64,000 nucleotides of DNA from a virus (lineage: Duplodnaviria > Caudoviricetes), in the IMG/VR virus record IMGVR_UViG_2765235989_000002, positions 1 to 64,000 of that record. One strand, written 5' to 3'. A program made the position numbers and the translations under genes. The notes beneath the pieces were generated by a model. The model worked only from the letters and a program-made list of their open reading frames with translations, was not told the origin of the DNA and searched no databases. This document shows, one piece after another, positions 6,847-64,000 of this stretch. The first letter of the stretch is position 1, and each line of letters begins with the position of its first letter.

Positions 6847-7962
6847 TCACGGTTGGTACGGCATGGCCTCGAGGAGCAGCTTGACCACTCGACGCCGGTG
6901 CTGCAGTTCCATCCGTTCGATCATCACGGCGCTGAGTTCGTCAGGTCGGTCCCACTGGACACCTTCCGCCCATGACGGATGAGGTGTCCCCTGTTCGGTT
7001 GCTTCGGGGGCATCGGCTGCTTCTGCGGTACGGGCGTGCTGCTCGGGGACTGAGCGGGGGGCGACGACGGCCTCAGAGGAGCCGTGGGGTTTTACGGCCG
7101 TAAAACTCGGCGCATCCCTGGGTTCGGCCTGAACGGTCGGACGCTGCTCCGCTACGGACGATCCGTCCCGTTCCTCTGGTGCGGAGACACGTGGTGGAGC
7201 AGCAGCGGACGGTACTGCCCGTTGCGCTTCGGTCTTCTCGGCGCGCTTCTTCGCGGCCTTGGCCTCGGCGAGCGCGTTCCGCCGGGACTGTTCTTGCTCC
7301 CACCACTTGGCTTGTTCTGCTGCGTCCCACTTGTTGTCGCGTGCGAGCATCCCAAGCTTGCGGGCGGCTTCCAGCGGGACGCTCTTCTTCCGCACCTGCT
7401 CCTGCATCTGCGGGGCAAGGTGTGTGAGGAGGACGCGCTGCGTGACCCAGCCGTCGGCGCGCTCGAAGTGCTGGGCGACCGCTCGGTTGGTGCCGAACTC
7501 GCGGACCAGGGCCTGCACGGCGTATGCCTCTTCGATGGCGTCGAAGTTCTGCCGGTCGACGTTCTCGGAGACCACGGCCTCCATGAACGTCTTCCGGTCG
7601 GTGGCGAAGCCGTCGTTGACCACGCAGTCCAGTGCCGCGAGCCCGACCTCGGTCGCGGCCCGAAAGCGGCGCTCGCCGCTGACGAGTACGTAGTCGACGC
7701 TCCCGATCTGTTCGGCGTGGTCGGGCCACAGCTTGAGGTAGGCGATGCGGCTGACGACCGGGCACGGCTGGTTCTGCCGGCGCTGAAGGCTCTTACCGAA
7801 GTCGATCAGTTCGTCAGTCGTGCCGAAGTCCTGCCGTGGGTTGACCAGGTTCGGCACGAGACGTGTGATGGGTACCCGGTAGAGCCTTCCGTCGGCGCGG
7901 GTGTCGGTGTATGAAGTGCTGTCCTCGTCTCCGAAGAAGTCGTCGAACTCGTCGCGTGCCAC
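6847..7962 (-). CDS. parB: ParB/RepB/Spo0J partition protein
   Basis: NPRQDF, LVSGERRFRA arginine patch, ENVDRQN, HTH; coupled to parA. Confidence 0.92.
   Translation of the reverse strand: MARDEFDDFFGDEDSTSYTDTRADGRLYRVPITRLVPNLVNPRQDFGTTDELIDFGKSLQRRQNQPCPVVSRIAYLKLWPDHAEQIGSVDYVLVSGERRFRAATEVGLAALDCVVNDGFATDRKTFMEAVVSENVDRQNFDAIEEAYAVQALVREFGTNRAVAQHFERADGWVTQRVLLTHLAPQMQEQVRKKSVPLEAARKLGMLARDNKWDAAEQAKWWEQEQSRRNALAEAKAAKKRAEKTEAQRAVPSAAAPPRVSAPEERDGSSVAEQRPTVQAEPRDAPSFTAVKPHGSSEAVVAPRSVPEQHARTAEAADAPEATEQGTPHPSWAEGVQWDRPDELSAVMIERMELQHRRRVVKLLLEAMPYQP
7089..7106. repeat. Palindrome GTTTTACGGCCGTAAAAC, candidate parS (copy 1, inside parB)
   Basis: Perfect 18-bp palindrome. Confidence 0.75.
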
Positions 7963-8702
7963 TAGCGGGCCCCCGTGAACTTCTGGCGGCGGAGCTGGTG
8001 TTCGAGGGCGAGGGACACGAAGTCCTGCTTCGCCTTGGTGGCGGTGTGGTTCGACTCGTACTGGGTACAGAAGCGTCCGTTCGTGATGCCGCGGGTGTGG
8101 GGCTTGTAGTGCCGGATCGTGGCGTTGTACAGCTCCCAGCCGCGTCGGTTGACCAGGCTCTCGGTTCGTTCCTTGTCGGCTTCGCCGTCGCGCGGATCCC
8201 AGTTGTTGATCACTACGCCGTAGGGAATCTGCCGGGGGAGGAGGACCCGTTCGATGGTGACCTTGGTCGGGGTGAAGGCGGAGCCTTCTGCTTCGAGCGG
8301 GACGATCACGTCGTCGGCGACGTCGAGGATGGCTCGCAGGGCGTCACCGACGGTGCCGTCTCCCAGGGGGTCAATGGCTTCGTCGTCCTCTTCCTCGTTG
8401 AGGGGCATGAAGCCGGGGGTGTCGACGATGATGAAGTCGGCCTTCGCGCGGCGCAGGCGGCGGAGCTGTTCGACGTTGCGGACGCTGGCGTTGACGACGC
8501 GGAAGGGGACTTCGCGTCCTGCTTCTCTGACCTTGTCGGCGTGCTCGACGCTGGTGGCCTGTGGGTCTATTGAGACGACCGCGACGGACGGGTTGTCGCT
8601 GTTACTGCCGAGGATTTCGGCGTAGACGGCGGCCAGATTGACCGTGATGAGCGACTTGCCCACCCCGCCCTTCCTGTTCAAGAGCACGGTGATGTACGGC
8701 AT
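7962..8702 (-). CDS. parA: ParA family ATPase
   Basis: Deviant Walker A KGGVGKS, DPQ, IIVDTPG. Confidence 0.93.
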   Translation of the reverse strand: MPYITVLLNRKGGVGKSLITVNLAAVYAEILGSNSDNPSVAVVSIDPQATSVEHADKVREAGREVPFRVVNASVRNVEQLRRLRRAKADFIIVDTPGFMPLNEEEDDEAIDPLGDGTVGDALRAILDVADDVIVPLEAEGSAFTPTKVTIERVLLPRQIPYGVVINNWDPRDGEADKERTESLVNRRGWELYNATIRHYKPHTRGITNGRFCTQYESNHTATKAKQDFVSLALEHQLRRQKFTGAR

Positions 8703-9727: not shown

Positions 9728-11189
9728 AGGTGGCGGCCTCCTGCCAGGGCATGCTGATGCGGACGTTGGTGCTGTACCGGGTGAGTGCGCGGTCGACGAG
9801 CTGGTTGGTGTAGAGCCGTCGGGCGTCGGCCTCGCCCATGACGGGGATGGCGTCGAGGATGATCTGAGGGTTGGCCTCGGCGGCGGCCCTCAGGTCCACG
9901 ACGGTCGCCTCGTCGAGGGTGTCGATGTCGACATGCTGGCTGTCGTCGTGGCCGTAGCTGACAGCGGCCTCAAGGTCCTCGGCGGACGGCTGGCGGCTGT
10001 GCGCGAGGGCGTCGCGGACGATCCGCTGGACGGACGCGCGGGCCGGGCCGCCGCCGAGGGTTTCGTATCCGCGGTGGCGGGCCTTCTCCTGGACGCGGGA
10101 CTCCTGCCATGCCAGGACGGCCGTCTTGCGGCGCTGGGGGGTGGTGTACAGCAGGTGGGCGCCCTTGAGGCGGTGGGCGAGCATCCCGGACGGGCGGCGG
10201 ACCTCGGCAGCGGTGAGGGGGGTGGCTTCGGCGACGGCCTGGACCTCGAGCGCGGTCCATCCGGCGTCGGCGACGTCCCGGAGGATCCACGCGAGCCGCT
10301 TCCACGAGCCGCGGGAGAGCCACGGGGCGATGCTCATGACCTCGCGGGCGAGCTGGTAGCGGCGGCCGACGCGGTTCAGCTTCCGCCGACCACCGGCCTG
10401 CGCCTTGGACTTCTTCGGGGTGGGGGACTTGCTCTGCCCGCTTGCGAGCTTGCTCTCAGGGGGGAAGTGAGTAGTACCGGCAGTGTCAACAGCTGAGGTA
10501 CCACCCTGCATTGGGGTGCAACGCGTCCTCGAGGAAACGGTCTGCTTCCGGGGCCGGCGGCGCTTGCGGGTGGCCTTCCGGGCGAGCTTCCCCAGCAGGC
10601 CCTGCTTCTCCGGCGCGGCCCCGACCGGGACACGCGTGTAGGCGGGCATCGTCTCGTCGCGCTGGATCGTGCGGATGCCGTGGGCCTCATCGAACGCGGC
10701 GGGGATGATCCGCTCGAACACGGACGTCTGGTTCGGCTGCCCGGACAGGCGGGTGCCCTTCACTCGGTACACGAGGAGCCCGGTCTCGCGGAGCAGGCCG
10801 AGGTGGTACTGGATGGTCCGCTCCGACACCTTCAGCTTCCGCATGAGGTAGGCGATTCCGGGCCGGCACTCGGTCAGCGCGGAGAGTTCCTGGGCGATGA
10901 CGAGCGTCGTCGGCCCCCACTTCGGGCCGTGCTTCCGGGACGGCACGTACAGGCCGGTCTTGGCGAGTTCGTGGACCCAGTGGACGGCGGTCATCCAGGA
11001 GTGGGCGCAGGTGGCGATCCGTCCGCTCGTGGCGTCCAGCCACTGGTCGGCGGGCGCGACAGGGAAGGCACCGGGGGTCTTCGAGGTGTCCTGTCGCTGG
11101 CACGGGATGCCGCCACGGTTGGGGGAAATACTGGGCGAATCGCCCGTGCGGGCGCGCGGAAGCTGACAAGAAGGGGATGCGTACGGCAC
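9720..11189 (-). CDS. Putative replication initiator (N-terminal HTH)
   Basis: CRPGIAYLMRKLKVSERTIQYHLGLLRETGLL HTH; adjacent to parAB and a DciA-like gene. Confidence 0.65.
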   Translation of the reverse strand: MPYASPSCQLPRARTGDSPSISPNRGGIPCQRQDTSKTPGAFPVAPADQWLDATSGRIATCAHSWMTAVHWVHELAKTGLYVPSRKHGPKWGPTTLVIAQELSALTECRPGIAYLMRKLKVSERTIQYHLGLLRETGLLVYRVKGTRLSGQPNQTSVFERIIPAAFDEAHGIRTIQRDETMPAYTRVPVGAAPEKQGLLGKLARKATRKRRRPRKQTVSSRTRCTPMQGGTSAVDTAGTTHFPPESKLASGQSKSPTPKKSKAQAGGRRKLNRVGRRYQLAREVMSIAPWLSRGSWKRLAWILRDVADAGWTALEVQAVAEATPLTAAEVRRPSGMLAHRLKGAHLLYTTPQRRKTAVLAWQESRVQEKARHRGYETLGGGPARASVQRIVRDALAHSRQPSAEDLEAAVSYGHDDSQHVDIDTLDEATVVDLRAAAEANPQIILDAIPVMGEADARRLYTNQLVDRALTRYSTNVRISMPWQEAATYA

Positions 11190-15154: not shown

Positions 15155-16957
15155 CTATACGGCAGTGGCCATGGCCGGTGCGGCGTACCGGTCGATGTCC
15201 TCGCCGGTGATGGCTTCGACGAGCGCGCAGACGATGACCTCGGAGCAGTTCGGGGTCACGGCGTTGCCGTACTGTCGGACGCGCTCGCGCTTCGAGCCCA
15301 ACACGACGTACTGGTCGGCGAAGCTCATCGCACGGCCGATCTCGTGGGGCTCCAACATCCGGAACCGCACGTCCTCGATGGCGACTTTGCCCTGCACCAG
15401 CGCGTACCGGTCTCGCGTCGACAGGGTCCCCACCGGCTCCCGGACCGTGCGCGCCGTACCGTTGCCGTAGTACGGCACCAGCAGGTGCTCCCAGGTGACC
15501 AGCGACTGGTGGCCGGCCGTCGTCATGGTCCGCAGGTACTCGCTGACCGGGGTGCAGTGCTCGCCACCGGCGCCGACGCTGCCGTTGTTCCTCATGACGA
15601 ACGCAGCGTCGGGCATGACCAGGCCGTGGTGATTGCCGTTCGCGGAGACCGTGCCCACCGGCTCGCCGATCGACCGACCGCGAAGCTGGTCACCGCCGCC
15701 CCGCATGGTCACCATGAACGGCAGCCACGCCAGGCCGGTCTCGTTGCGGGCGGTCTGGGTGCGCAGCGGACTGTTCGCGGACGCTGGTTCCTTCCCCTCG
15801 CGGCCTTCCACCGGAATGAGGAGCGGCGGTATCGCCAGGCCGTCGTTCTCGCGGGTCGTGCGGCAGCTCATCGGGTCCAGAACGCTGGACGGGTCGTTCC
15901 GCCAGGTCCCTCCGGCCGGGACCATGAACGGCCCGTAGGCGACGGCCTTGGTCGGGGTCGTGGTCTGCGTCGTGAGCGGGGCGTCTACGGGCCAGGTGCG
16001 CACGCCGGGCCTGCGCTCGAAGGTGTTCCCCGCCGCCTCCAGGGTGATGGGCCGGGCGAACTTGTCCAGACCGGCCTGGATACGGGCGAGCGTCTTGTCC
16101 GCGAGTGGCTTGGCCCGGTCCCCGATCCGCTGTCCCGGCAGCGACCAGTCGATCGCCACGGCGGCCGGAAGGGTCTCCGGCTCCACCACCTGGTTCCGGC
16201 ACGACACGTTCGGGCACCGGTACACGTACTGCTGCCGGTAGCGGCCCATGTCCCGGCCCGGCGTCTTGAACCGCTGTACCGCCTGCACCCACTCCTTGCA
16301 GGCCGGGCACCACGCCCTGGGGCGCAGCCACTTGTCCCAGTCCGGGACCCGCCGCAGCGAGGAGTGCCAGTAAGCCACGTACAACCGGTCCCGCGACTGC
16401 GGGGCCTTGTGCACCGTCCTCGGGTCCGCGTGCATGCTGTTCAGGGCGATGACCCGGGTCTGGTATCCGAGCTTGTGCAGCTCCCCAAGCCACCGGTCCC
16501 ACTGGTCCCAGGCCCGCACGTCAACGACGTTCTCCACCACCCCGGCCTTCACCAGCCCGCCGCGCTCCTGCACTCCGCGCAGGTACAGCGGCACCTCCTC
16601 CATCAGCGCCCGGGACCGTTCCACCTCCTCCGACGGGCCGAACCCCTCGAACAGGTCGCCCTGCATGGAGGCGTCGAAGTCACGCTTCTTGCCCCGCGCG
16701 TTCGACCACTGCGGGCACTCCGGCGACGCCCAGAAGATGTCGGTGACCGGCCACTTCTCGACGGGTGCGTCGCGGATGTCGCCGCGGTAGTGGTCGACAT
16801 CGGGGAAGTTCGCGGCGTGCGACTCGATCGCCCGCTCCCAGTGGTTCGCCGCGCGCTCCATACGGACGCCGGGGATGGAGTGCATGCCCTGGCTGGAGCC
16901 CCCGGCGCCGCAGAACCAATCCATAACGGTCAAGGCATCATTGTCGTGGTAGGCCAT
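15155..16957 (-). CDS. Orphan C5 cytosine DNA methyltransferase
   Basis: FCGAGG (motif I), SPEC (IV), ENV (VI), PQSRDR (VIII), RQYGNAV (X). Confidence 0.92.
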   Translation of the reverse strand: MAYHDNDALTVMDWFCGAGGSSQGMHSIPGVRMERAANHWERAIESHAANFPDVDHYRGDIRDAPVEKWPVTDIFWASPECPQWSNARGKKRDFDASMQGDLFEGFGPSEEVERSRALMEEVPLYLRGVQERGGLVKAGVVENVVDVRAWDQWDRWLGELHKLGYQTRVIALNSMHADPRTVHKAPQSRDRLYVAYWHSSLRRVPDWDKWLRPRAWCPACKEWVQAVQRFKTPGRDMGRYRQQYVYRCPNVSCRNQVVEPETLPAAVAIDWSLPGQRIGDRAKPLADKTLARIQAGLDKFARPITLEAAGNTFERRPGVRTWPVDAPLTTQTTTPTKAVAYGPFMVPAGGTWRNDPSSVLDPMSCRTTRENDGLAIPPLLIPVEGREGKEPASANSPLRTQTARNETGLAWLPFMVTMRGGGDQLRGRSIGEPVGTVSANGNHHGLVMPDAAFVMRNNGSVGAGGEHCTPVSEYLRTMTTAGHQSLVTWEHLLVPYYGNGTARTVREPVGTLSTRDRYALVQGKVAIEDVRFRMLEPHEIGRAMSFADQYVVLGSKRERVRQYGNAVTPNCSEVIVCALVEAITGEDIDRYAAPAMATAV

Positions 16958-18216
16958 CAGGCGGCTCCCCTTCCCGTGTCGCCGCCCGGCGCGGCCTTCC
17001 TCGTCTGCTCGTTCAGTCCGGCGATCCGCCCGTCCAGCAGCTTCCGCATCGGCAGCCACGCTCCGTCCGGGCCCTGCACCTGGCGGTCCAGGACGCCGTG
17101 CTTGTCCGCGTCGCCCTTGATCTGCACCAGAGCGATCGGGTTGTTCCAGCAGCGTTCACTGGCGACCTGGCCGATGAGACGCTGTACGTGCCTGTCCGCC
17201 GCCTCGTCGTCGGTCCCGGCCGAGGCGCCGGCGGCGGAAGCGCCCGCCTCGCTCTGGGAACCGTCGCTCTCGCCGTTGTCCGGGGACAGCTCGGCAAGAC
17301 GGTCCGTCAGCAGGTCCTCGATCCGCGTGGGGACCTTGTCCTTCCCGGCAGGCACCAGATGGTCCAGCAGCCGCTTCTCGCGGGCCTCGGCCAGGTGCTG
17401 CTCGACGACGGCCCGTTCGTCCCAGCCCTTACGGACGCGGCGCAGGAACTGTTCCTTCTTCTGCGCGTCCAGCAGCTCGCGGATCCGGTCGTCGATCAGC
17501 TCGCCGAACAGGCGCAGCGTGCCCTGTGCATCGTGGACCTGGGACTCGTGGAAGTTCTCCTCGCCGACCTGCACCTTCACCGCTCGGAGCCCTTCCAGAT
17601 GGCCCCAGCGCTTCTGCATCAGCGAGTACAGGTCGTCCAGCCGGTCCTCTCGGGACGGCTCGGCGGTGAGCTGGTCTCTCTCGGCGGCGGCCTTGTCCAT
17701 GTCGGTCTTGGACCACAGGTCCAGGGCCGCGCCGAACCGCATGGCGGCGTTCCGCAGCGCGTCACCGATGGCTTCCTTCGCGGCGTTCGGGCCGGTCTTA
17801 CCGTCCGAGTTGCCGTAGCCGATCCGGGTGTGCCCGCCGACGGTCAGGCGGATCCACAGGCCGCCGACCTGGTCGAACTTGGGCAGGCCGTCAGCGTCGA
17901 AGGCCATGGGTTCCCAGGTCCACAGCGGATCGGCTTCCAGAAGCCGGCCGGTCAACTCGGCATGCCCGACGTAGTCCAGGTGAACGTGTTTGGTCGTCAG
18001 CGTGCTAGCGCAGGTATCGCACCGCTGTCGGGTGTGCTGTTCACACACCTTGAACTGGGCCTTACTGCATTTGGTGCACGAGACCTTGGGGAGCTTGGAG
18101 ATCTGGCTGGGCTGGAATGGTCGCCGCAGGATTTCCAGGGCGTCGAGCTGGTTTTGGGTGTGCGAGGTGGGGCCCTCCGCCGTGTTGCTGGCGGGGGCCT
18201 CGATGGCCGCGGCCAT
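16957..18216 (-). CDS. Rad52/Sak-like single-strand annealing protein with a long C-terminal extension
   Basis: LRRPF..LDYVGHAELTGRLLEADPLWTW...KEAIGDALRNAAMRFGAALDLW. Confidence 0.75.
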   Translation of the reverse strand: MAAAIEAPASNTAEGPTSHTQNQLDALEILRRPFQPSQISKLPKVSCTKCSKAQFKVCEQHTRQRCDTCASTLTTKHVHLDYVGHAELTGRLLEADPLWTWEPMAFDADGLPKFDQVGGLWIRLTVGGHTRIGYGNSDGKTGPNAAKEAIGDALRNAAMRFGAALDLWSKTDMDKAAAERDQLTAEPSREDRLDDLYSLMQKRWGHLEGLRAVKVQVGEENFHESQVHDAQGTLRLFGELIDDRIRELLDAQKKEQFLRRVRKGWDERAVVEQHLAEAREKRLLDHLVPAGKDKVPTRIEDLLTDRLAELSPDNGESDGSQSEAGASAAGASAGTDDEAADRHVQRLIGQVASERCWNNPIALVQIKGDADKHGVLDRQVQGPDGAWLPMRKLLDGRIAGLNEQTRKAAPGGDTGRGAA

Positions 18217-53137: not shown

Positions 53138-53501
53138 CCGCGGACCCGGTGGTGGCCGGGCCACTGATGCTGGGGTGCTCGGCAGTAGCGCACCTCTGGC
53201 ACTTTTGACGCGGCCTGCCGGTGGGAGGCCGGTTTCCCGTGCGGCGGGAAGCCAAGGGCACGGGTGCTGGTTCTTCAGACGGGTCGGCCCCGCCAGTTCG
53301 GGGGAGGCTGGCGGGGCCGGGGGAACCCTGTACGGCCGGGGGTGCCGTGCTGGGGCTCAAGGGTGTTGGTCTTGTTGCACGGCCCGGGTTCTTTCTGGCG
53401 CGGGGACGCAGGAAGAACACAGATGAGTATCCGTCCCGGGCCGTGCTCTTCCATGGTGGTACAGGTTCGGGCGTTTGTCCGGGCTGCTCTCCCCCGGGGT
53501 G

Positions 53502-55841
53502 TTACTCGTCGGGTGTTGGTGCCGGGCCCAGGCCGTACGTACCGCGGGTACCGTCCTGCGGCCGGTGGATTTTCTGCTCCTTGACGAGGCGGGCGAGGGT
53601 GTTGGACAGCGTCGTCTCCTTCATCCCGGTCTGCTGAAGCAGCGTGGTCTTGTCCATGTACTGGATCTCGTAGTCGTCCGGCTCCAGGTCGGCGCCGGCG
53701 AGCGCCTCGAGGTGCATGGGGTCGGAGTTCTCCCGGAGAGCCTGGATGACTTTGTCTTCCGCGCTGGGTTCCTTCTTCGGCAGGTCGACGCCGTTGACGT
53801 ACTTCGGTGCGGAAGAGTCGTCCTGGTCGCTTCCGCTGCCGCCTTCTTCGAAGCCGCGGACCGGGGTGTTGGCGATCTCTTCCAGGGTGGCGTCGTCCCA
53901 GCCGGGGAAGTCCTCGGGGACGGCGACCTGGTCGGGCCGGATGTGCGGGGTGGCGTCCTCGAGGGTGAAGGTGCGGCCCATGCCGGGGCGTCCGCCGGGG
54001 GCGCCCATGAATCCGAGGCCGAAGGTGCGGCGCGGGTCGTCCTCGGGGAGGGTCGGGTCGTAGATCAGAGAGTCGTCCTCGGACTTCCATACGGCGGGGA
54101 TTTTGGCGGGGTCGATGCCTTCGAAGCCGTCGGGGAGGTCGGCGAGGTTGGTCTGGCCGGAGTCGGTGCGCAGGATCAGCCAGGCTCCGCCGTTGATCAG
54201 GTTGGCGCGGATGGCTTGTTCGCCGCCGATCTGGTCCAGGTTCACGGTCTGGTTGATCAGGGTCCACGGCATGCCCAGGGAGCGGCCGAGGCTGGCGCCG
54301 GCCTTGACGATGTGTACGGCTTCCTTGCGGTTGGGCACGTTGGGGCCGAGTACTTGGGCGGCCTCGTCGAGGGCGGTGGCGCACCAGGGTCGCATTTTGG
54401 AGGGCTGGAAGTTCTTCAGTTCCAGTCGGGCGGCTTCCTCCTTGCGGTGCATGAGGATCGCGTAGGAGATCCGCAGGGCGCCGAGGGCGCCGTATGTCTG
54501 GAGGCCGGAGTAGGCGGCCATCTTGGGGATCGCGGGGTTGGAGGCGCCCTTGGGGTCGGCGTAGAGGATGGCCGCGTCGTTGGCGTGGTAGCCCAGGCAG
54601 ACGAGTTGGGCGGCGCCGCCCTTTCCGGATCCGGTTGTGCCGGCGATGACGAGGTGGAGGGCGCCGAGGACGGGGTCGAACATGGGGAACATCCAGGGGT
54701 GCCCGGAGATGACCTTGCCGAAGGGGACGCGGCCGCCCTTGGTGGCCTTGAGGGCGTCCAGGCCGGGGAAGTCGAATCCCTTCTCCAGGGGGTTTTCCTT
54801 CATCGTGCGGATGATGGCCTTGCGGGGGTTGGTGGCGATCGGCTCGTAGGAGATCAGCAGGGGTGAGGTGCGCATGGCGCCGGCGAGTTCGTTCCGGTCG
54901 GGGGCCTTGAGGATGTCGAGGTCTTCGTCGGCGACGACGTATGCGGCCTGGCCGCCGGTGTTCGGGTCGTCGGTGACGTCCTCCAGGTGGGTCTTCGCCA
55001 TCAGGCCGCCGGGGCGGGCTACGTACTTCATCCAGGCGCCCTCCAGGGTGGAGGGGTTCAGCTTCGCGGGGGCTTTCATGCTGACCTCGATGCGGGCCTC
55101 TCCCGCATGGTCGCCGGGGGTGATGTCGACCCATCCGGGACGGACCTTGTAGACGGAGGAGACGGTCTCCTTGGAGACGGAGACGCCGCTTCCTGCCGGG
55201 GCCAGGATGGTGCCGGTCCAGCGGAGGATGGTGCCGGTCGCGGGGTCGGTGTACGCGAGGACGTTCGCGAGGACCTGGTGTTTGTGGGCTCCGGTGGTCG
55301 GGTTGGAGATGTGCGTTCCCCATGCCATGACGATGCCGTCGGCGATGCTTGCGGGCTTGCCGGCCGTGCTGGCTGCGTGGGGGTGGGTGGTGCGGCGGGT
55401 CTGGGTCTTGCGGGCCAGGACCTTGCGTAGCTTCCAGGGGACGAGGGCGACGGCGGCCCACCAGCCGAGGGAGACGATGCCGGGGATGGATGCCGGGTTG
55501 AGGATGCCGGCCATGAGGGCGTCCGTGCCGTCGAGGCCCCTGAGTGTGCCGAGGCCGAGGGACATGCCGGTGGTGAGGGTGGAGATGAACATCGGGGAGC
55601 GGTGGGCGCGGACGATGTCCCCGGCCGGGAGGTTGTCGGTGAGTTCGGGCGGGAGGCGGTTCATGTAGTTCGCGGCCATGAAGCCGGCGGCTCCGCCGTA
55701 GGCGATGGCTGCGGTGAACGCGGCGCCGCCGTCGAGGAGCGGGGCGAGGATGCCGGTGGCGATGGGGGCGGCGGAGGTGACGAAGGCAATGCCGCGTTCG
55801 GTGCTTGCGGCGCGGGGGCTGGTGGTCGTGGGCGTGGTCAT
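53502..55841 (-). CDS. traB: TraB-type FtsK/SpoIIIE conjugative DNA translocase
   Basis: N-terminal TM helices, GTTGSGKG Walker A, DPKG, LDEA Walker B, C-terminal winged helix. Confidence 0.85.
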   Translation of the reverse strand: MTTPTTTSPRAASTERGIAFVTSAAPIATGILAPLLDGGAAFTAAIAYGGAAGFMAANYMNRLPPELTDNLPAGDIVRAHRSPMFISTLTTGMSLGLGTLRGLDGTDALMAGILNPASIPGIVSLGWWAAVALVPWKLRKVLARKTQTRRTTHPHAASTAGKPASIADGIVMAWGTHISNPTTGAHKHQVLANVLAYTDPATGTILRWTGTILAPAGSGVSVSKETVSSVYKVRPGWVDITPGDHAGEARIEVSMKAPAKLNPSTLEGAWMKYVARPGGLMAKTHLEDVTDDPNTGGQAAYVVADEDLDILKAPDRNELAGAMRTSPLLISYEPIATNPRKAIIRTMKENPLEKGFDFPGLDALKATKGGRVPFGKVISGHPWMFPMFDPVLGALHLVIAGTTGSGKGGAAQLVCLGYHANDAAILYADPKGASNPAIPKMAAYSGLQTYGALGALRISYAILMHRKEEAARLELKNFQPSKMRPWCATALDEAAQVLGPNVPNRKEAVHIVKAGASLGRSLGMPWTLINQTVNLDQIGGEQAIRANLINGGAWLILRTDSGQTNLADLPDGFEGIDPAKIPAVWKSEDDSLIYDPTLPEDDPRRTFGLGFMGAPGGRPGMGRTFTLEDATPHIRPDQVAVPEDFPGWDDATLEEIANTPVRGFEEGGSGSDQDDSSAPKYVNGVDLPKKEPSAEDKVIQALRENSDPMHLEALAGADLEPDDYEIQYMDKTTLLQQTGMKETTLSNTLARLVKEQKIHRPQDGTRGTYGLGPAPTPDE

Positions 55842-55921: not shown

Positions 55922-56305
55922 CTATGCCTGCTCGAACCAGTCGCGGGAGACGTTCTCCAGGCCGTCGACGCTGGACCGGTCGAAGGCTTCCTGGAAGCCG
56001 CCGTGGGTGGACCTGGCCTGGTCGCCCGCTGCTGTGGCCTGCTTGGCGGTGTCCTGGGCCTTGGCGGCGTAGGTCAGGATCCCGTCGGACAACCCCTTGA
56101 TGACCTTGGACAGTTCGTGGGAGTCGGCCACCGAGTCCCTGTCGACGGACTTCGCGGCCATCTGATCGGACTCCCTGCTGGTCTCTGTGGCCTCTGCGTC
56201 GATGACTTTCGCTGCCGCCTTGACGTCGTCGGCGTTCCGGGAGACCTTCCTCTCCAGCTTGGCCACCTTCGCTTGGAGGGCCTTGTACGTCAGGTCGCTG
56301 CTCAT
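55922..56305 (-). CDS. Helical-hairpin transfer-region protein
   Basis: AGGA RBS; all-helical 127 aa. Confidence 0.7.
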   Translation of the reverse strand: MSSDLTYKALQAKVAKLERKVSRNADDVKAAAKVIDAEATETSRESDQMAAKSVDRDSVADSHELSKVIKGLSDGILTYAAKAQDTAKQATAAGDQARSTHGGFQEAFDRSSVDGLENVSRDWFEQA

Positions 56306-56325: not shown

Positions 56326-58167
56326 TCAGGCCGCGAGCGCGGTGTCGGAGGGGGTGACGCCTCGGTCGGCGTAGAACTTCAGTTCGGCCGTCTTCGTCTC
56401 GTCGGAGTCGACGACGGCCTGGTACAGGGGGGCGTAGCGGGTCTGGACGTTGGACAGGACGGCCTTCGCGAAGTCGTGGGCCTTGCCGGCGCGTTTGTGG
56501 ACTTCGTTCGCCTCGTCGGCCTGGGCCTTCGCCAGGTCGGCCAGCTTCTGGAGTTGACCGACGACTTTCTCTCCGCCCTTGACTCCCTTGGCTTCCTCTG
56601 CGAGCTTCTGGCAGTCGCCGGCCTGCTCGCGTGCTTCGGCGGCCAGGATCTTGGTCGCATCGGCGATCCTGGACAGGCCGTCGATGCGAGCCTCCAGTCG
56701 GCCTTCGTAGTCTTTGAAGCGGCGAAGCTCTCCCCGGGTCACGGACGGCTTCAGGAAGCCCTCCCCCAGGGTGATCTTCTTTGCGTCGATGCCCTGCGCC
56801 TGGATCGGCGTCGCCTGCGACATGAACGGGTCCTCCATCGGTTCGTCGTCGTCTTCGATCTGGACCGCCTGGCCCTGGGTGATGCCCTGGAGGTCGGCCT
56901 TGCGCGATGCGTGTGCCTTGTCGAGGCGGTCTTTGTCCCGGTCGGCGGCCTCGCTGGTGTCGCCCCAGCCGTCCTTGACGCCGTCCTTGTATGCCTTGAC
57001 GTGGGCGACCGCCCGGGCGGCGCGTGTCCCGTCGCGGTATCCGGCCTCGCGGGACTCGCGGGTGGAGAACGGCTTCCCCTTCTCCGCGTGCTCTCCGGGC
57101 GGCGGGGTTTTCCCGGTCGGGTCCGTCTTGCCGGTCTCGCTGTCCTTGCTGCTGCCGGACGGGCCCGTGCTCTTCCCTCCAGGGCCTGCGGCGCCGGCCT
57201 TGCCGGGCGTACCGTCTGCCCCCGGGCCGCCCTTCGCGCCGGGGGCCTTGCCGGACGGGCCGTCAGACGGCTTCCCACCCTCGCCGGTGCCGCCCTTCGA
57301 GAGGGGCCCGTTGCTGCTCTTGCCATCCGCGGTCGAGCCGGAACCGGATCCCTTGCCGCCCGTCCCGGAGCCGTCCTTGCCGGCGGCACCGGCCGGGCCT
57401 GCGGCACCGTTCTTCCCGCCCCCTGAACCGCCGCTGGACGGGCCGCTCGCCCCGGCCTTGCCGTCGTGCCCCTTGGACAGCTTCGGGGAGCCCCCATCGC
57501 CGCCATTCTTCGGATTCTTTGGACGCGGAGATCCGTTGCTGTTTCCGCTGCTGGATCCGCCTCCTCCAGACCCACGGCCGCTACCGCCCCCCGCTCCTGA
57601 TGCTCCGTTGGCACCGGAATACCCAGAGGAGCCCTTCTGCGGGCTCCCGTTGGACTTTCGCGTGTCTTTTACCGGACCGGGCCCTGTGCTCTTGTTGCCC
57701 AGTGATTTCCCTCCCGGACCGTTCGCGGCTGACGCCTTTCCAGGGATTCCACCGGAGCGGTTGACTGTGACTTGCCGGGTCTCTTTCACCTGCCGTGCCT
57801 GGGCTTTCGTTTTGGCCAGGTCGAGGCGCTTGTTCTGGGCGCCTCCGCCTTTCCCCCATCGGGCCGCACCGGCCAGCAGCCACGCCCGCCAAATCCCTTT
57901 CTTCTCGATGGTCCGCCCGGCCGTTCCGTCTTTTGTGGCTGTTTCGTTGTCGCCGTGGTAGGCGGCGCTGGAGGCGTCGGAGGTGCTCGGCGCGGGACCG
58001 CCTGCGGTTGCCTCGCTGGCGGTGGGGGCGGCCAGGTCGAAGGCGGGCCGGGCCGGATCGACGGGGGCGAGCATGGAGGCCAGCAGCCCGGACTGCGGGC
58101 TGCTGGACGCGCCGGCTGGCGGGTCGTCCGGGCCGGGAACAGCTGCGGGGACCGTGTCGGTCGCCAT
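56326..58167 (-). CDS. Gly/Ser/Lys-rich transfer-region protein with a C-terminal helical domain
   Basis: AAGGAG RBS; long low-complexity linker. Confidence 0.7.
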   Translation of the reverse strand: MATDTVPAAVPGPDDPPAGASSSPQSGLLASMLAPVDPARPAFDLAAPTASEATAGGPAPSTSDASSAAYHGDNETATKDGTAGRTIEKKGIWRAWLLAGAARWGKGGGAQNKRLDLAKTKAQARQVKETRQVTVNRSGGIPGKASAANGPGGKSLGNKSTGPGPVKDTRKSNGSPQKGSSGYSGANGASGAGGGSGRGSGGGGSSSGNSNGSPRPKNPKNGGDGGSPKLSKGHDGKAGASGPSSGGSGGGKNGAAGPAGAAGKDGSGTGGKGSGSGSTADGKSSNGPLSKGGTGEGGKPSDGPSGKAPGAKGGPGADGTPGKAGAAGPGGKSTGPSGSSKDSETGKTDPTGKTPPPGEHAEKGKPFSTRESREAGYRDGTRAARAVAHVKAYKDGVKDGWGDTSEAADRDKDRLDKAHASRKADLQGITQGQAVQIEDDDEPMEDPFMSQATPIQAQGIDAKKITLGEGFLKPSVTRGELRRFKDYEGRLEARIDGLSRIADATKILAAEAREQAGDCQKLAEEAKGVKGGEKVVGQLQKLADLAKAQADEANEVHKRAGKAHDFAKAVLSNVQTRYAPLYQAVVDSDETKTAELKFYADRGVTPSDTALAA

Positions 58168-58186
58168 CAACACTCCTTCACTGTGG

Positions 58187-58292
58187 GTAGTCACTTACTA
58201 CTCACCGCCCAGCCCGAAATCCCGGTTCAGGAGCTCTTGGGGGTAGCGCCTGGGTGGGTTCTCGAGCTGGAAGGTGAGTGGTGAGTGACTAC
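58187..58292. repeat. Long imperfect inverted repeat (about 106-nt hairpin)
   Basis: GTAGTCACTTACTACTCACC / GGTGAGTGGTGAGTGACTAC plus inner pairing. Confidence 0.7.
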
Positions 58293-58900: not shown

Positions 58901-59461
58901 TCATTCTCCGTTCTGGTGTGCTTTTCGGGCGGCGGTGGTGAGGAAGGCCCGCACGTTAGAGAACTGCTGGTCGGGGAGGTCGTTCCAGACGTAGAACGGC
59001 AGGGTGACGCCGTGCTCGGCGAGGGTGTCCTGCATGTAGCGGACGGCCCGGTCGCGGCTGTCCGGGGTGACGTTTCCGGTCGCTTCGAGGAGGCTCTGGG
59101 CGCCGCGGATGCACATGCGGCCGGTGGGTGAGAAGTCGGAGAGCTTGCACCAGCCGTAGTGGTTGAGGACGGCGATGGTCTGCTCGAGGTGCGCGGACGG
59201 CACGCGGGGTACCGGTTCCTGCCACCAGCCGAGGCCGGCCATGAGGGTGCGGAGGGAGCGGGGCAGGAGGCGGTGGCTGCGTGGGGGCATGTCGGGGACC
59301 GGCGCCACGGCCGGGCCAGGGGCTACGGCCGTGGGCCGCACCGGCTGGGGCCGTACGGGGTGGGGGCGTCCGAGGATCCGGGACGCTGACGGCGTCCCGG
59401 TCTCGACGATCTGGTTCTGGGCCACGTGTTGGTCTCCTTCTTGGTCTCGCCGGTCGGTCAC
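58901..59461 (-). CDS. DUF6197-like protein
   Basis: LNHYGWC...GRMCIRGA...WND...V..FL..AA; true start possibly the GTG near 59425. Confidence 0.65.
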   Translation of the reverse strand: MTDRRDQEGDQHVAQNQIVETGTPSASRILGRPHPVRPQPVRPTAVAPGPAVAPVPDMPPRSHRLLPRSLRTLMAGLGWWQEPVPRVPSAHLEQTIAVLNHYGWCKLSDFSPTGRMCIRGAQSLLEATGNVTPDSRDRAVRYMQDTLAEHGVTLPFYVWNDLPDQQFSNVRAFLTTAARKAHQNGE

Positions 59462-60064
59462 CGGGGGGTCTCGGTCTCTTGCTGCTCACGCGGTCTCGGT
59501 GGTCTTGAGGTCTCCCGCCGCCTCGGAGACCGTGGTCTCGGTCTCTCCGCTTCCGGTGGTCTCTGCGAGGTACAGGTCTCGTGCTGTCTTCAGCCGTTTG
59601 GCGGCCGTGGACTTGGGGCGGCCGGTGGTCTCGATGGCGTCGTCGAGAGAGACCTTCATGTGGCCGTTGCGAGACCTCATGAGGGAGACCAGTGCGCGGG
59701 TCTCGGTCTCGCGGTCTCCGATGGCGGAGACCGAGGTGGTCTCTCGGGGGAGACTTGTGCGCGAGACCTTTGAGCGGGTCTCGGTCTCGCTGGTCTCTGC
59801 CGGGTTGGTGGTCCCGGGAGACCGGTCTCCGGTCTCGGTCTCCGTGTTGGTTCCTCGGTCTCCCTGGTCTCGGGAGACCACGGTCTCGGTGGTCTCGATG
59901 GTCTCCGCGCGCCGGGCGGGGCTGGTCTCGGTTCCGGTGCGGGGGGTCTCTGCTCGCTGAGGTGAGACCGTTCCCCTGGTCTCCTTCTGCGGAGAGACCG
60001 CCGGGGTGGAGATCTGCCGGGTCGCGAGACTGGTCTCCGTGTCTTCGGGCTTGGTGGGGAGACC
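59399..60064. repeat. Dense array of about 42 GGTCTC/GAGACC hexamers in both orientations
   Basis: Counted by hand; spans the 3' part of 59486-61114 and continues past its stop codon. Confidence 0.85.
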
Positions 60065-61114
60065 CCAGGGGTTGCTGTGGTCGAGGCGGGCGAGGGTCGG
60101 GGCGTGGGCTGAGACGGCTAGGTCGTCGAGGAGGGCGGTCTTCTGTGCGGGGTCGTGGGCGACGTTGGCGGCCCGGAGGGCGGCGCGGAGCTGGCGGCGG
60201 ATCCAGCGGCCGCGCCATCCGCCCTTCCTCTTGTCGCTGAGGGCGTCGTACCGGTCGGTGAGGTTGGCGGCCTTGACGCGGGCGCGCTGACGGAGGAGTT
60301 CGGTGGTCGTGGTGTCGGTGTCGGCGACCCCGAACGTGGCGAGGATCTTCTGGCTGAGGCGGCGGCCGAGGCGGGCGAGGACGCTCATGCTGCGGGCGGT
60401 GGCGTCGGCGGCGCGGATCTCGAGGCCCATGGCGAGGTGCCACAGGAGTGCGGCGCCGATGGGGCCGAACACGGCGCGCCAGGCGCCGGCGGTGAGGCCC
60501 TGCCAGAATCCTTCGGCTGTGGCGGCGCCTTCGGCGAAGGCGGGGACGGCGAGGAATCCGGTGATGATCCAGACGAGGAGGCCGGGCATGCCGGGTGCGT
60601 TGTCGCGCTTGAGGTTGTCGCGGGCGGCGAGGCCGAGGGCGATGAGGACGATTTCGCCGGTGCCGCAGAGGGCGATGCGGGTGAAGGTGTCGGTGATGTT
60701 GAGGTGGGTGTGGGTGAAGCCCCAGGCGGTGTTGATGCCGACGCCGGTGCAGACGAGGGCGCCGATGGTGACGGCGGCCTGTCCGGCGGACGGGGACTCG
60801 GCGTCGGAGTTCTTGGTCTTGGTGATCGCGTTCCGGGTGGCGCTGATGAGGGCGGCGGCCAGGAGGACGAGGGCGGCGGCCGCGGCGGTGCAGAGGGCGA
60901 TGCGGCGGCCGGTCTGGTCGAGGGTGAGCAGGCGGAGGGGGCCGCCGACGCCGGCGTACAGGCCGGTGGCGACGGTGAGCGTGGCCAGGGCGACGAGGGT
61001 CTTCGGGGTGCGGTGGGTGCTGGGGGGTGTGGGTGCCCCGGCGGTGGGCAGGGGCTGCCAGTCCCCGAGGACGGGGGTGTTGGACGGCTGCTGGCCGACC
61101 GGGACGGTGGTCAC
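59486..61114 (-). CDS. SpdB2-like multi-pass membrane spread protein
   Basis: About 6 TM helices, RAVFGPIGAALLWHLAMGLEIR, repetitive C-terminus. Confidence 0.7.
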   Translation of the reverse strand: MTTVPVGQQPSNTPVLGDWQPLPTAGAPTPPSTHRTPKTLVALATLTVATGLYAGVGGPLRLLTLDQTGRRIALCTAAAAALVLLAAALISATRNAITKTKNSDAESPSAGQAAVTIGALVCTGVGINTAWGFTHTHLNITDTFTRIALCGTGEIVLIALGLAARDNLKRDNAPGMPGLLVWIITGFLAVPAFAEGAATAEGFWQGLTAGAWRAVFGPIGAALLWHLAMGLEIRAADATARSMSVLARLGRRLSQKILATFGVADTDTTTTELLRQRARVKAANLTDRYDALSDKRKGGWRGRWIRRQLRAALRAANVAHDPAQKTALLDDLAVSAHAPTLARLDHSNPWGLPTKPEDTETSLATRQISTPAVSPQKETRGTVSPQRAETPRTGTETSPARRAETIETTETVVSRDQGDRGTNTETETGDRSPGTTNPAETSETETRSKVSRTSLPRETTSVSAIGDRETETRALVSLMRSRNGHMKVSLDDAIETTGRPKSTAAKRLKTARDLYLAETTGSGETETTVSEAAGDLKTTETA

Positions 61115-63565: not shown

Positions 63566-63644
63566 GTTTCGTTGGACTAACCTCAAGAGGGAACCGCTGC
63601 ACACAACGGAGTGAGCAGTGCACAACAGAGAGAGGAGGCAGGCC

Positions 63645-64000
63645 ATGCCCGAGACCCCTGGGTACGCGGAGATCGCCGCGCACTTTCGGCGGCAGATTCA
63701 GGACGGAACGCTCCGGCCCGGCGACACGATCCCGAGTTACAAGGAAGCCAGCGCCCAATTCGGCGTTGCGCATACGACCGTGAACCGCGCATACCGGGTA
63801 CTCAAGATGGAGGGACTGACCCTCACCAAGCCAGGTGTCGGGACGGTCGTGGCCGCACCGGCCAGCAACAACATCGGAACACGAGTAGCCCTGCATGCCG
63901 CTACAGGTAGCGCTCTTGACCGTGGCGAGTCGTCACGGATCCTCGAGGTGGGCACCGTCGGTGCCGACGCACTCGTCGCTCCCCGGCTCGACGTCGCTCC
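63645..64000 (+). CDS. GntR family regulator (TraR/KorSA-like), partial
   Basis: YAEIAAHFRRQIQDGTLRPGDTIPS...FGVAHTTVNRAYRVLKMEGL...PGVGTVV. Confidence 0.9.
   Translation, partial: MPETPGYAEIAAHFRRQIQDGTLRPGDTIPSYKEASAQFGVAHTTVNRAYRVLKMEGLTLTKPGVGTVVAAPASNNIGTRVALHAATGSALDRGESSRILEVGTVGADALVAPRLDVA

Follow-up and report, generated by a model that had tools for sequence, protein, structure and literature searches.

A hexamer array overprinted on a membrane-protein gene of a phage-plasmid as a probable docking site for the protein's own C-terminal domain

Conjugation and spreading in Streptomyces are known mainly through the translocase TraB and its recognition locus, clt, and the roles of the membrane "spread" (Spd) proteins are largely open in the account given by PMC4447253. 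The clt regions described there hold direct 8-bp repeats recognized by TraB, and the clt loci treated in PMC4447253 and PMC3583192 are made up of clustered short repeats (7-9 bp) to which TraB or TraA binds. In pWTY27, clt covers 16 bp of traA, so these repeats can enter a coding region (PMC3583192). Here, we analyze an array of the hexamer GGTCTC/GAGACC in the first 64 kb (positions 1 to 64,000; hereafter, the window) of the 83,134-bp single-contig virus record IMGVR_UViG_2765235989_000002, a phage-plasmid. The array lies mostly within one gene, here called X, and is probably a cis-acting docking site for the C-terminal helix-turn-helix (HTH)-like domain that the same gene encodes. The features at issue are the following:

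59399-60064, no strand assigned: 42 GGTCTC/GAGACC hexamers forming the array, with every frame and either orientation represented
59486-61114, minus strand: gene X (542 amino acids), with an N-terminal polytopic membrane domain, a conserved linker ending in NPWGLP, a repeat zone, and a C-terminal HTH-like domain
60533-60997, minus strand: at least four hydrophobic transmembrane segments, residues 40-194 of X, predicted by a Kyte-Doolittle scan
59552-59725, minus strand: three-helix HTH-like domain, residues 464-521 of X in an AlphaFold2 model, whose coding DNA itself holds several hexamers

Cis-acting repeat arrays bound by element-encoded proteins are already known, and the X array is a variant of such arrays. 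It resembles the clt loci of pSVH1, pJV1, and pWTY27 in being a cluster of short repeats on the element; clt is cis-acting, and the protein that binds it is encoded in the transfer operon of the element and anchored in the membrane. As a cluster of short words on a transferred replicon (42 copies in 666 bp), the array is the only one of its kind in the genome. It differs from clt in composition, a 6-bp word being repeated about 40 times in either orientation where clt has four to nine direct repeats, and in position, inside another gene 3.6 kb from traB rather than next to tra. It also appears to differ in its reader: by the comparative proxy of co-change, the word does not change with the TraB tail but follows the tail of X, a protein without a motor domain.

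The closest documented precedent is SpdA2 of pIJ101, which binds a palindrome, sps, within its own coding region; as PMC4170104 presents it, the sps motif imposes a peptide motif on SpdA2, and its function is tied to plasmid stability or spreading. SpdA proteins are small and soluble (117-163 amino acids), and sps is a single conserved 12-bp palindrome, present in one to three copies and common to many plasmids (PMC4170104). The palindrome as given in that source has no match at one mismatch or fewer in the window. SpdB2 is an integral membrane protein of the spd/tra operon with affinity for double-stranded DNA; intramycelial spreading requires it, and homologues are reported on actinophages. 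Unlike what we propose for X, its DNA binding is described as nonspecific, and the treatment of it in PMC4447253 describes no cognate repeat array. X contrasts with SpdA in being a 542-residue, membrane-anchored protein with 20-40 sites whose word differs between elements.

Centromere-like arrays offer a further comparison. ParR/parC, the omega heptads of pSM19035, and StbA/stbDR of R388 consist of short repeats (6-10 bp), some in both orientations, that are bound cooperatively by plasmid adaptors. Such an array, together with a small element-encoded DNA-binding domain, forms a large nucleoprotein complex that positions the plasmid. ParR, omega, and StbA are soluble and work with a partner NTPase, and their arrays are intergenic. 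In the locus studied here, by contrast, the candidate adaptor is itself membrane-bound, and its own gene carries the overprinted array.

An exact search found 42 copies of the hexamer at 59399-60064, of which 31 read GGTCTC and 11 read GAGACC on the plus strand. This bears out the hand count of an initial annotation made from the sequence (about 42 copies in about 670 bp, three quarters of them GGTCTC on the plus strand). The window as a whole holds 99 copies, compared with 63.1 ± 8.2 (maximum 89) in dinucleotide-preserving shuffles, none of which reached 99 (n = 100). The excess is entirely local to the array, where copies are about 70 times as dense as in the rest of the window. Outside it, the word is neither depleted nor enriched (57 copies remain in the window once the array is set aside, and about 63 are expected for the window as a whole). 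A scan of the window found no other canonical hexamer with more than 14 copies in any 666-bp stretch elsewhere. In the full 83,134-bp genome there are 113 copies, with 40 in kilobase 59 and four in the next best bins, and no second cluster was found anywhere in it.

Copies within the array are spaced irregularly, 6-52 bp apart, with five GGTCTCGGTCTC doublets, and 74% of them point in the same direction. No longer tandem unit, flanking consensus, or conserved flanking base was found around them. The open reading frame (ORF) of X contains 37 of the 42 copies, and the array occupies the last third of the gene. The other five lie beyond the stop codon (59486-59488), starting at 59399, 59431, 59443, 59467, and 59473, and the three with the lowest coordinates run into the region where the next ORF (58901-59461) is listed to start. 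At the opposite end, the copy at 60059-60064 spells Gly-Leu within NPWGLP, a peptide found across the family, and recurs in a related plasmid, L090, whose array word differs. This copy may be a coding coincidence, in which case the array proper may comprise 41 copies. It appears to mark the left edge of a swappable cassette, described below.

Several features show that the array is under selection at the level of DNA and not of protein: the word occurs in all frames and both orientations, synonymous choice is fixed, rare codons are recruited, and copies continue past the stop codon. Within the ORF, GAGACC falls 20 times in frame 0, where it encodes Glu-Thr, and six times in frame 1, encoding (G/R)-D-x, while GGTCTC falls eight times in frame 2 (x-Val-Ser), twice in frame 1 (Arg-Ser), and once in frame 0 (Gly-Leu). 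All 20 Glu-Thr pairs of X are spelled GAGACC, compared with 24 of 41 in a reference set of 26 genes from the same genome. Likewise, all nine Val-Ser pairs are spelled GTCTCN, compared with 15 of 34. Codons that are rare in the genome are commoner in the tail of X where the word is built: TCT (2.1% vs. 0.15%), CGA (2.6% vs. 0.5%), GGA (4.7% vs. 1.1%), and AGG (1.0% vs. 0.24%). The Glu-Thr bias toward GAGACC is replicated in three relatives (19/20, 17/17, and 12/17). All four loci with GAGACC arrays carry three to five copies within 150 bp after the stop codon. Furthermore, the X ORF of 11 relatives stops 22 codons earlier than that of the window, and downstream copies that are coding in the window's longer ORF are non-coding in those relatives with DNA available. 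The initial annotation had read both the continuation past the stop codon and the selection on DNA from the window; the relatives agree on both points.

The columns of X conserved across the family span residues 119-350, and the repeat zone is hydrophilic. In an AlphaFold2 model of a 103-amino acid tail fragment (predicted local distance difference test score, ~90), helices span fragment positions 25-42, 51-58, and 62-82, the third being basic, and the HTH-like domain is invariant across 12 proteins. A Foldseek search with the tail gave no significant match (best E = 2.1, SigR region 4). VIA-align gave a best Z score of 6.0 (TetR N-terminal HTH, root-mean-square deviation of 2.1 over 52 residues) among mixed rows, which is not significant; many of the weak fold matches are to HTH domains (sigma region 4, TetR N-terminal domains, and winged helices). 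X has no match in Pfam (Pfam HTH included), PHROGs, or NCBIfam. The nearest ESM Atlas neighbours of its N-terminal part are DUF2637 clusters (0.91) and SpdB_N (PF27080) clusters (0.82-0.83), which we treat as a lead. The DUF2637 profile (PF10935) matched none of 19 X family members at E ≤ 0.1 and nothing in the element's own genome, where the controls also gave no match. The gene syntenic with X in one sibling phage-plasmid (L087) is named DUF2637 by PGAP.

Homologs of X retrieved by protein search form two groups. Members of the first share its N-terminal domain and have other repeat peptides and other tails, while members of the second have different N-terminal parts and the same Glu-Thr zone and tail. 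The GAGACC-associated tail ('...IGDRETE..VSLxDAIxETGRPKxTAAKRLKxARDxY') is found fused to three different N-terminal architectures. All four tail-sharing loci with DNA available have GAGACC arrays: the window (42 copies), NZ_CP109240.1 (L001; 39 copies), NZ_CP107756.1 (L083; 35 copies), and NZ_CP109092.1 (L084; 24 copies), the last a 241-kb linear plasmid in which tail identity is down to 48-50%. The same association is visible in the proteins, with 16-24 Glu-Thr pairs in all 12 that have the GAGACC-type tail and three or fewer in the other 45 homologs.

Sibling phage-plasmids with other tails carry private words: CTTCGC (13 copies) in NZ_CP108975.1 (L085), GGCTCA (19 copies) in pSLE1 (L086), and CCGAAG (26 copies) in L087. 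Further private words are CGCTCA (21 copies, L003) and CGAACC (24 copies, L090). Cross-counts between loci are near zero; L085, for example, holds three copies of GAGACC and no GAGACC array. Among the 28 pairs formed by eight phage-plasmid loci, the word is common only to the three pairs whose X proteins have 76-87% identity over the last 70 residues. The TraB-like translocases do not follow this pattern: they are 63-78% identical in six pairs with different words (78% in L086 vs. L087, with GGCTCA and CCGAAG, respectively), whereas in the three same-word pairs (window, L001, and L083) they have unrelated C-terminal tails and either show 24% identity or cannot be aligned. Within flanks of 8-10 kb, the C-terminal part of X is the only ORF of the window that is matched in all three other GAGACC loci. 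Across relatives, the array word follows only X's own last ~70 residues. The initial annotation had raised the question of whether homologs swap the motif together with a recognition helix; they do so for the putative C-terminal HTH of X itself, and not for TraB.

A natural cassette swap points in the same direction. The L001 and L090 plasmids are 90-93% identical in DNA upstream, through the first 350 codons of X, and again downstream. The intervening 460-540 bp are unrelated, comprising a GAGACC array with one HTH in L001 and a CGAACC array with another HTH in L090. Since near-identical flanks enclose an unrelated insert, array and tail constitute a single exchangeable cassette of about 0.5 kb in which the word follows the tail.

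Both plasmids also have a small homologous ORF right after X (L001, 7620-7960; L090, 9530-9870). At its C-terminus, it carries an HTH of the same class as those fused to X in L003 and P0012 (...SRPTAQRIRxRVE...). In addition, CGAACC-type copies occur in the flank that the two plasmids have in common, although the array of L001 is built of GAGACC. This ORF and the CGAACC copies look like the relic of an earlier cassette.

To place the array among related loci, we took 539 X relatives from the genome collection, of which the best 80 were scored, and 74 more from IMG/VR. The 154 scored loci exclude six of the 88 genome or plasmid loci, which had N runs or a truncated gene (L009, L025, L047, L056, L057, and L075), and two of the 74 viral loci, in which the gene was not relocated on the plus strand by tblastn. 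An array was called at a minimum of 13 copies of one hexamer and at least 8-fold enrichment in the gene tail. Under these thresholds, 80 loci have an array and 58 lack one or have only a weak one, with 16 in between. More than 12 different array words occur among the related loci, each tied to an HTH tail class. All 32 loci with 'QLREI' tails carry GGGGAC(C/G)G, with 13-36 copies of GGGGAC. The 'IGQxRAQ' tails go, by subclass, with GGGTAC/CGTACC, GCATCC/CGCATC, and GAGTGC or CGCACC, and the 'STVRSWV' tails with AGGACG/GCGTCC (AGGACGC-type words). GGGGACCG is also among the words of related elements, and no array word was found for 'GQLVRWL' tails in the scored loci. The closest N-terminal homolog of X, P0003, which has another tail, and P0010, of the 'RQ' type, appear from their repeated peptides to have arrays as well; their tails were not found in PLSDB.

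The X homolog lies 0.5-1.2 kb upstream of a homolog of MobA/VirD2-type relaxases in 58 of 80 chromosomal loci, and the Pfam Relaxase domain was confirmed in two of three relaxase homologs scanned. Streptomyces integrative elements therefore appear to carry a conserved X-relaxase module, and the position of X homologs upstream of relaxase genes suggests that the module serves relaxase-type as well as TraB-type elements. An 18-kb stretch of the linear plasmid NZ_CP109092.1, which carries the module, has no annotated phage gene. SPDY/DUF317, HTH_36, and phage zinc-finger-like genes are also found near the X homolog in the chromosomal loci (L010-L081).

The element itself is a phage-plasmid of the pZL12/pSLE1 type, that is, a replicon of about 85-95 kb that combines a virion module with plasmid maintenance and transfer genes. 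CheckV puts the completeness of the record at 92%. Virion genes at 44.9-51.9 kb encode the large terminase (TerL), portal, scaffold, decoration, and major capsid proteins, and the region at 8-22 kb holds ParA-like, DciA-like, C5-methyltransferase, and integrase-like genes. TerL shares 62% identity with its counterpart in the Streptomyces plasmid-phage ZL12. The resemblance to pZL12 extends to a membrane-protein gene, pZL12.73c, two genes upstream of an FtsK/SpoIIIE-like gene, while the pZL12 translocase cannot be aligned to that of the window. Cumulative GC skew peaks near 66-67 kb, away from the array, and no convincing iterons were found in genome 64.3-68.1 kb. The product of the C5-methyltransferase gene (15155-17059, minus strand) is 634 amino acids long and matches the C-5 cytosine DNA methylase domain of Pfam (E = 1.4e-18). 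At genome 74162-76512, an MmyB-like regulator adjoins a type III polyketide synthase (chalcone-synthase-like) gene; a similar polyketide synthase gene is reported on pSLE1 and pZL12 (PMC4487206).

X heads the larger part of a minus-strand operon that lies under the control of a divergent GntR/UTRA regulator, which it faces, and that is syntenic with pSLE1 and other ~90-kb plasmids. The order is X, DUF6197, and proteins of 202, 622 (Gly-rich), 127, and 779 amino acids, a layout that is also that of the Streptomyces transfer/spread operons outlined in PMC4447253. The remaining genes of the operon and its surroundings, with homologs compared in L085-L087, are the following:

58901-59461, minus strand: DUF6197 protein, 186 amino acids as listed (Pfam PF19698, E = 2.5e-16), with homologs at the same position in L085-L087
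58289-58897, minus strand: 202-amino acid protein that has a hydrophobic segment near its C-terminus, shares 44-53% identity with the syntenic genes, and gives weak spanin-like PHROG matches
56326-58194, minus strand: 622-amino acid Gly/Ser/Lys-rich protein, 40-45% identical to the syntenic genes, with no family match
55922-56305, minus strand: 127-amino acid protein just upstream of the translocase gene, 55-60% identical in L085-L087, with no family match
53502-55841, minus strand: TraB/FtsK-like translocase gene (779 amino acids), with hydrophobic N-terminal segments, a GTTGSGKG P-loop, and a winged-helix-like C-terminal tail
63618-64000 (genome 63618-64406), plus strand: 5' part of the divergent GntR/UTRA regulator gene (Pfam GntR, E = 8e-15; UTRA, E = 3e-14), TraR/KorA-like by position
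7962-8702: ParA-like gene

Profile matches of the translocase are weak (phrog_1358, E = 0.009; TraD, E = 0.1), and a PDB sequence search returned no match. Its homologs are found in 121 Streptomycetaceae plasmid records, where they are annotated as 'DNA translocase FtsK' or 'conjugative DNA transfer family protein'.

We propose that X is anchored in the cytoplasmic membrane through its polytopic N-terminal domain and that its tail, presumably cytoplasmic, would bind the roughly 40 close-packed sites in and just after its own gene. Such binding would tie the phage-plasmid DNA to the membrane. The tied DNA could then be handed to products of the operon that includes X, namely, the TraB-type pump and the Spd-like proteins. 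Alternatively, the tie could keep the plasmid in place along the hyphae, providing segregational stability. Binding of the array, a cytoplasmic position for the tail, and either downstream role are what we infer.

A number of observations weigh against docking of X on its own array. The identity of the reader is drawn from the co-variation of word and tail, and the assignment of the tail as HTH-like comes from model topology and weak fold matches. The segment that encodes the HTH lies physically within the array, such that linkage alone would keep the two together. More than a third of the related loci (the 58 of 154 noted above) have no array or only a weak one, and the syntenic gene in pZL12, pZL12.73c, has no clear array either (the best 7-mer has seven copies). 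Within the GGGGACSG class (L011-L064 and others), a clean C/G switch at position 7 between 'TRVQ' and 'RPQ' tails was considered and rejected, as the counts show a graded preference. One subfamily nearly always has C (10-17 CG vs. 0-1 GG), while two mixed subfamilies have about 10 CG and 8 GG and about 12 CG and 20 GG, respectively. As to the downstream role, the operons of the window and L085 are 45-75% identical downstream of X proteins that are unrelated. That X does not co-vary with the downstream operon speaks against a specific contact between X and TraB, leaving gene position as the link to transfer, and argues for a self-contained module over a dedicated TraB adaptor. The element also has a separate ParA-like gene, so that a partition role is not obviously needed.

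Linkage is also an argument for the explanation that survives best after docking by X: that another sequence-specific protein, of element or host, reads the array and the X tail is just carried along. Since hexamers border the HTH-coding segment (59552-59725) to either side, linkage is unavoidable, and relatives were compared over 8-10-kb flanks, beyond which a reader could be encoded elsewhere on the plasmids. A host factor, however, cannot explain more than 12 words within one genus. The association of word and tail spans three unrelated N-terminal architectures and extends over plasmids, chromosomal relaxase-type elements, and viral contigs. It also persists at the 48-50% tail identity of L084, and no other ORF of the flanks follows the word. 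We therefore regard a separate reader, including one encoded beyond the compared flanks, as unlikely.

Somewhat less plausible is that the X tail does bind the array, but for regulation, as a roadblock or operator that limits read-through into potentially toxic spd and traB genes, in a kil-kor-like form of autoregulation. Within a single transcription unit, the array precedes the spd-like and traB-like genes, and chromosomal relatives have it 0.5-1.2 kb upstream of a relaxase gene. Expression of traB is toxic and repressor-controlled in the account of PMC4447253. However, this explanation leaves unexplained both the fusion of the reader to a polytopic membrane domain in every architecture seen and the need for 20-40 sites, and the operon already has a dedicated GntR repressor. 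We consider a regulatory role improbable.

The initial annotation had interpreted the array as a very large gene-embedded clt or as a binding array for a Spd or other protein. The second of these interpretations is supported; the first is not. As a clt, the array would be a set of recognition repeats for the TraB-like translocase (53502-55841), whose C-terminal winged helix would read them and so load the plasmid into the pump. The array and the TraB-like gene are in the same operon, most copies share one orientation, and clt loci are clusters of short repeats. The word, however, does not follow TraB: similar translocases go with different words, and unrelated ones with GAGACC. In particular, the TraB of NZ_CP108975.1 is 75% identical to that of the window and has the same putative recognition helix, TLSNTLARLVKE, and yet it is accompanied by a CTTCGC array. 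On the strength of this double dissociation, TraB was rejected as the reader of the array. Furthermore, array-bearing X homologs stand beside relaxase genes, not TraB, in the 58 chromosomal loci, and the array is separated from traB by four genes and 3.6 kb, whereas the clt loci described in PMC3583192 adjoin tra. A TraB-read array is thus decidedly improbable.

Another repeat is found close to the TraB-like gene. There are 11 copies of CCAACACC in the 83-kb genome, four of which cluster on the minus strand at 53362-53865 of the window, covering the 3' end of that gene and 140 bp beyond. In L085, which has the same putative TraB recognition helix, three of five CCAACACC copies are at the equivalent place. 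This cluster may be the real clt of TraB, although at least two copies fall in conserved codons (ANTP and SNTL) and homology may explain them. The TraB-like protein of L085 also has a C-terminal extension (10290-10562) that resembles an FtsK gamma domain (...STSMLQRKLRVGFARAEQLM...), which the window's protein lacks.

Two last explanations are very unlikely. The hexamers could be a by-product, with no function in the DNA, of a low-complexity Glu-Thr-rich linker expanded by slippage, as the zone is hydrophilic and of low complexity and 20 of the 37 in-ORF copies encode Glu-Thr; against this, 17 in-ORF copies are in other frames or the other orientation, five lie outside the ORF, there is no tandem unit, GAGACC is fixed as the spelling of Glu-Thr, rare codons are recruited, and the downstream copies are non-coding in relatives. 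The array could also be a pac site, an iteron origin, or a decoy for a restriction or methylation system specific for GGTCTC (the BsaI/Eco31I site), given that gene-embedded origins and pac sites exist in other phages and that this phage-plasmid has a terminase and a C5 cytosine methyltransferase; however, a 241-kb linear plasmid and chromosomal relaxase-type elements have the module as well, the GC skew peak is elsewhere, the word is neither depleted nor enriched outside the array, and relatives use many unrelated words, each tied to a tail class, which also tells against the decoy that the initial annotation had listed as a lesser option.

A literature search outside subscription journals and supplements turned up no account of such arrays and no function for X-type proteins. 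The locus is a clear case of a dense code, apparently for protein binding, that is overprinted on codons, fixing synonymous choices and recruiting rare codons. If docking by X is correct, it would add a second DNA-handling step in Streptomyces besides TraB/clt, one that is sequence-specific and membrane-bound and that extends to at least 80 of the 154 scored loci, of the TraB and relaxase types alike. It would also provide natural, orthogonal DNA-to-membrane tethers that are usable as tools. More tentatively, and with less confidence than we place in docking itself, array and HTH tail could form a portable 'address label' that chooses which DNA is held at the hyphal membrane and that is used by actinomycete mobile elements of all kinds: double-stranded DNA TraB-type plasmids, phage-plasmids, relaxase-type integrative elements, and prophages. 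Swapping the cassette might then re-address an element, such that co-resident relatives avoid competition or capture at each other's anchors. If so, these cassettes would represent an undescribed determinant of specificity and incompatibility for the spreading or inheritance of these elements.

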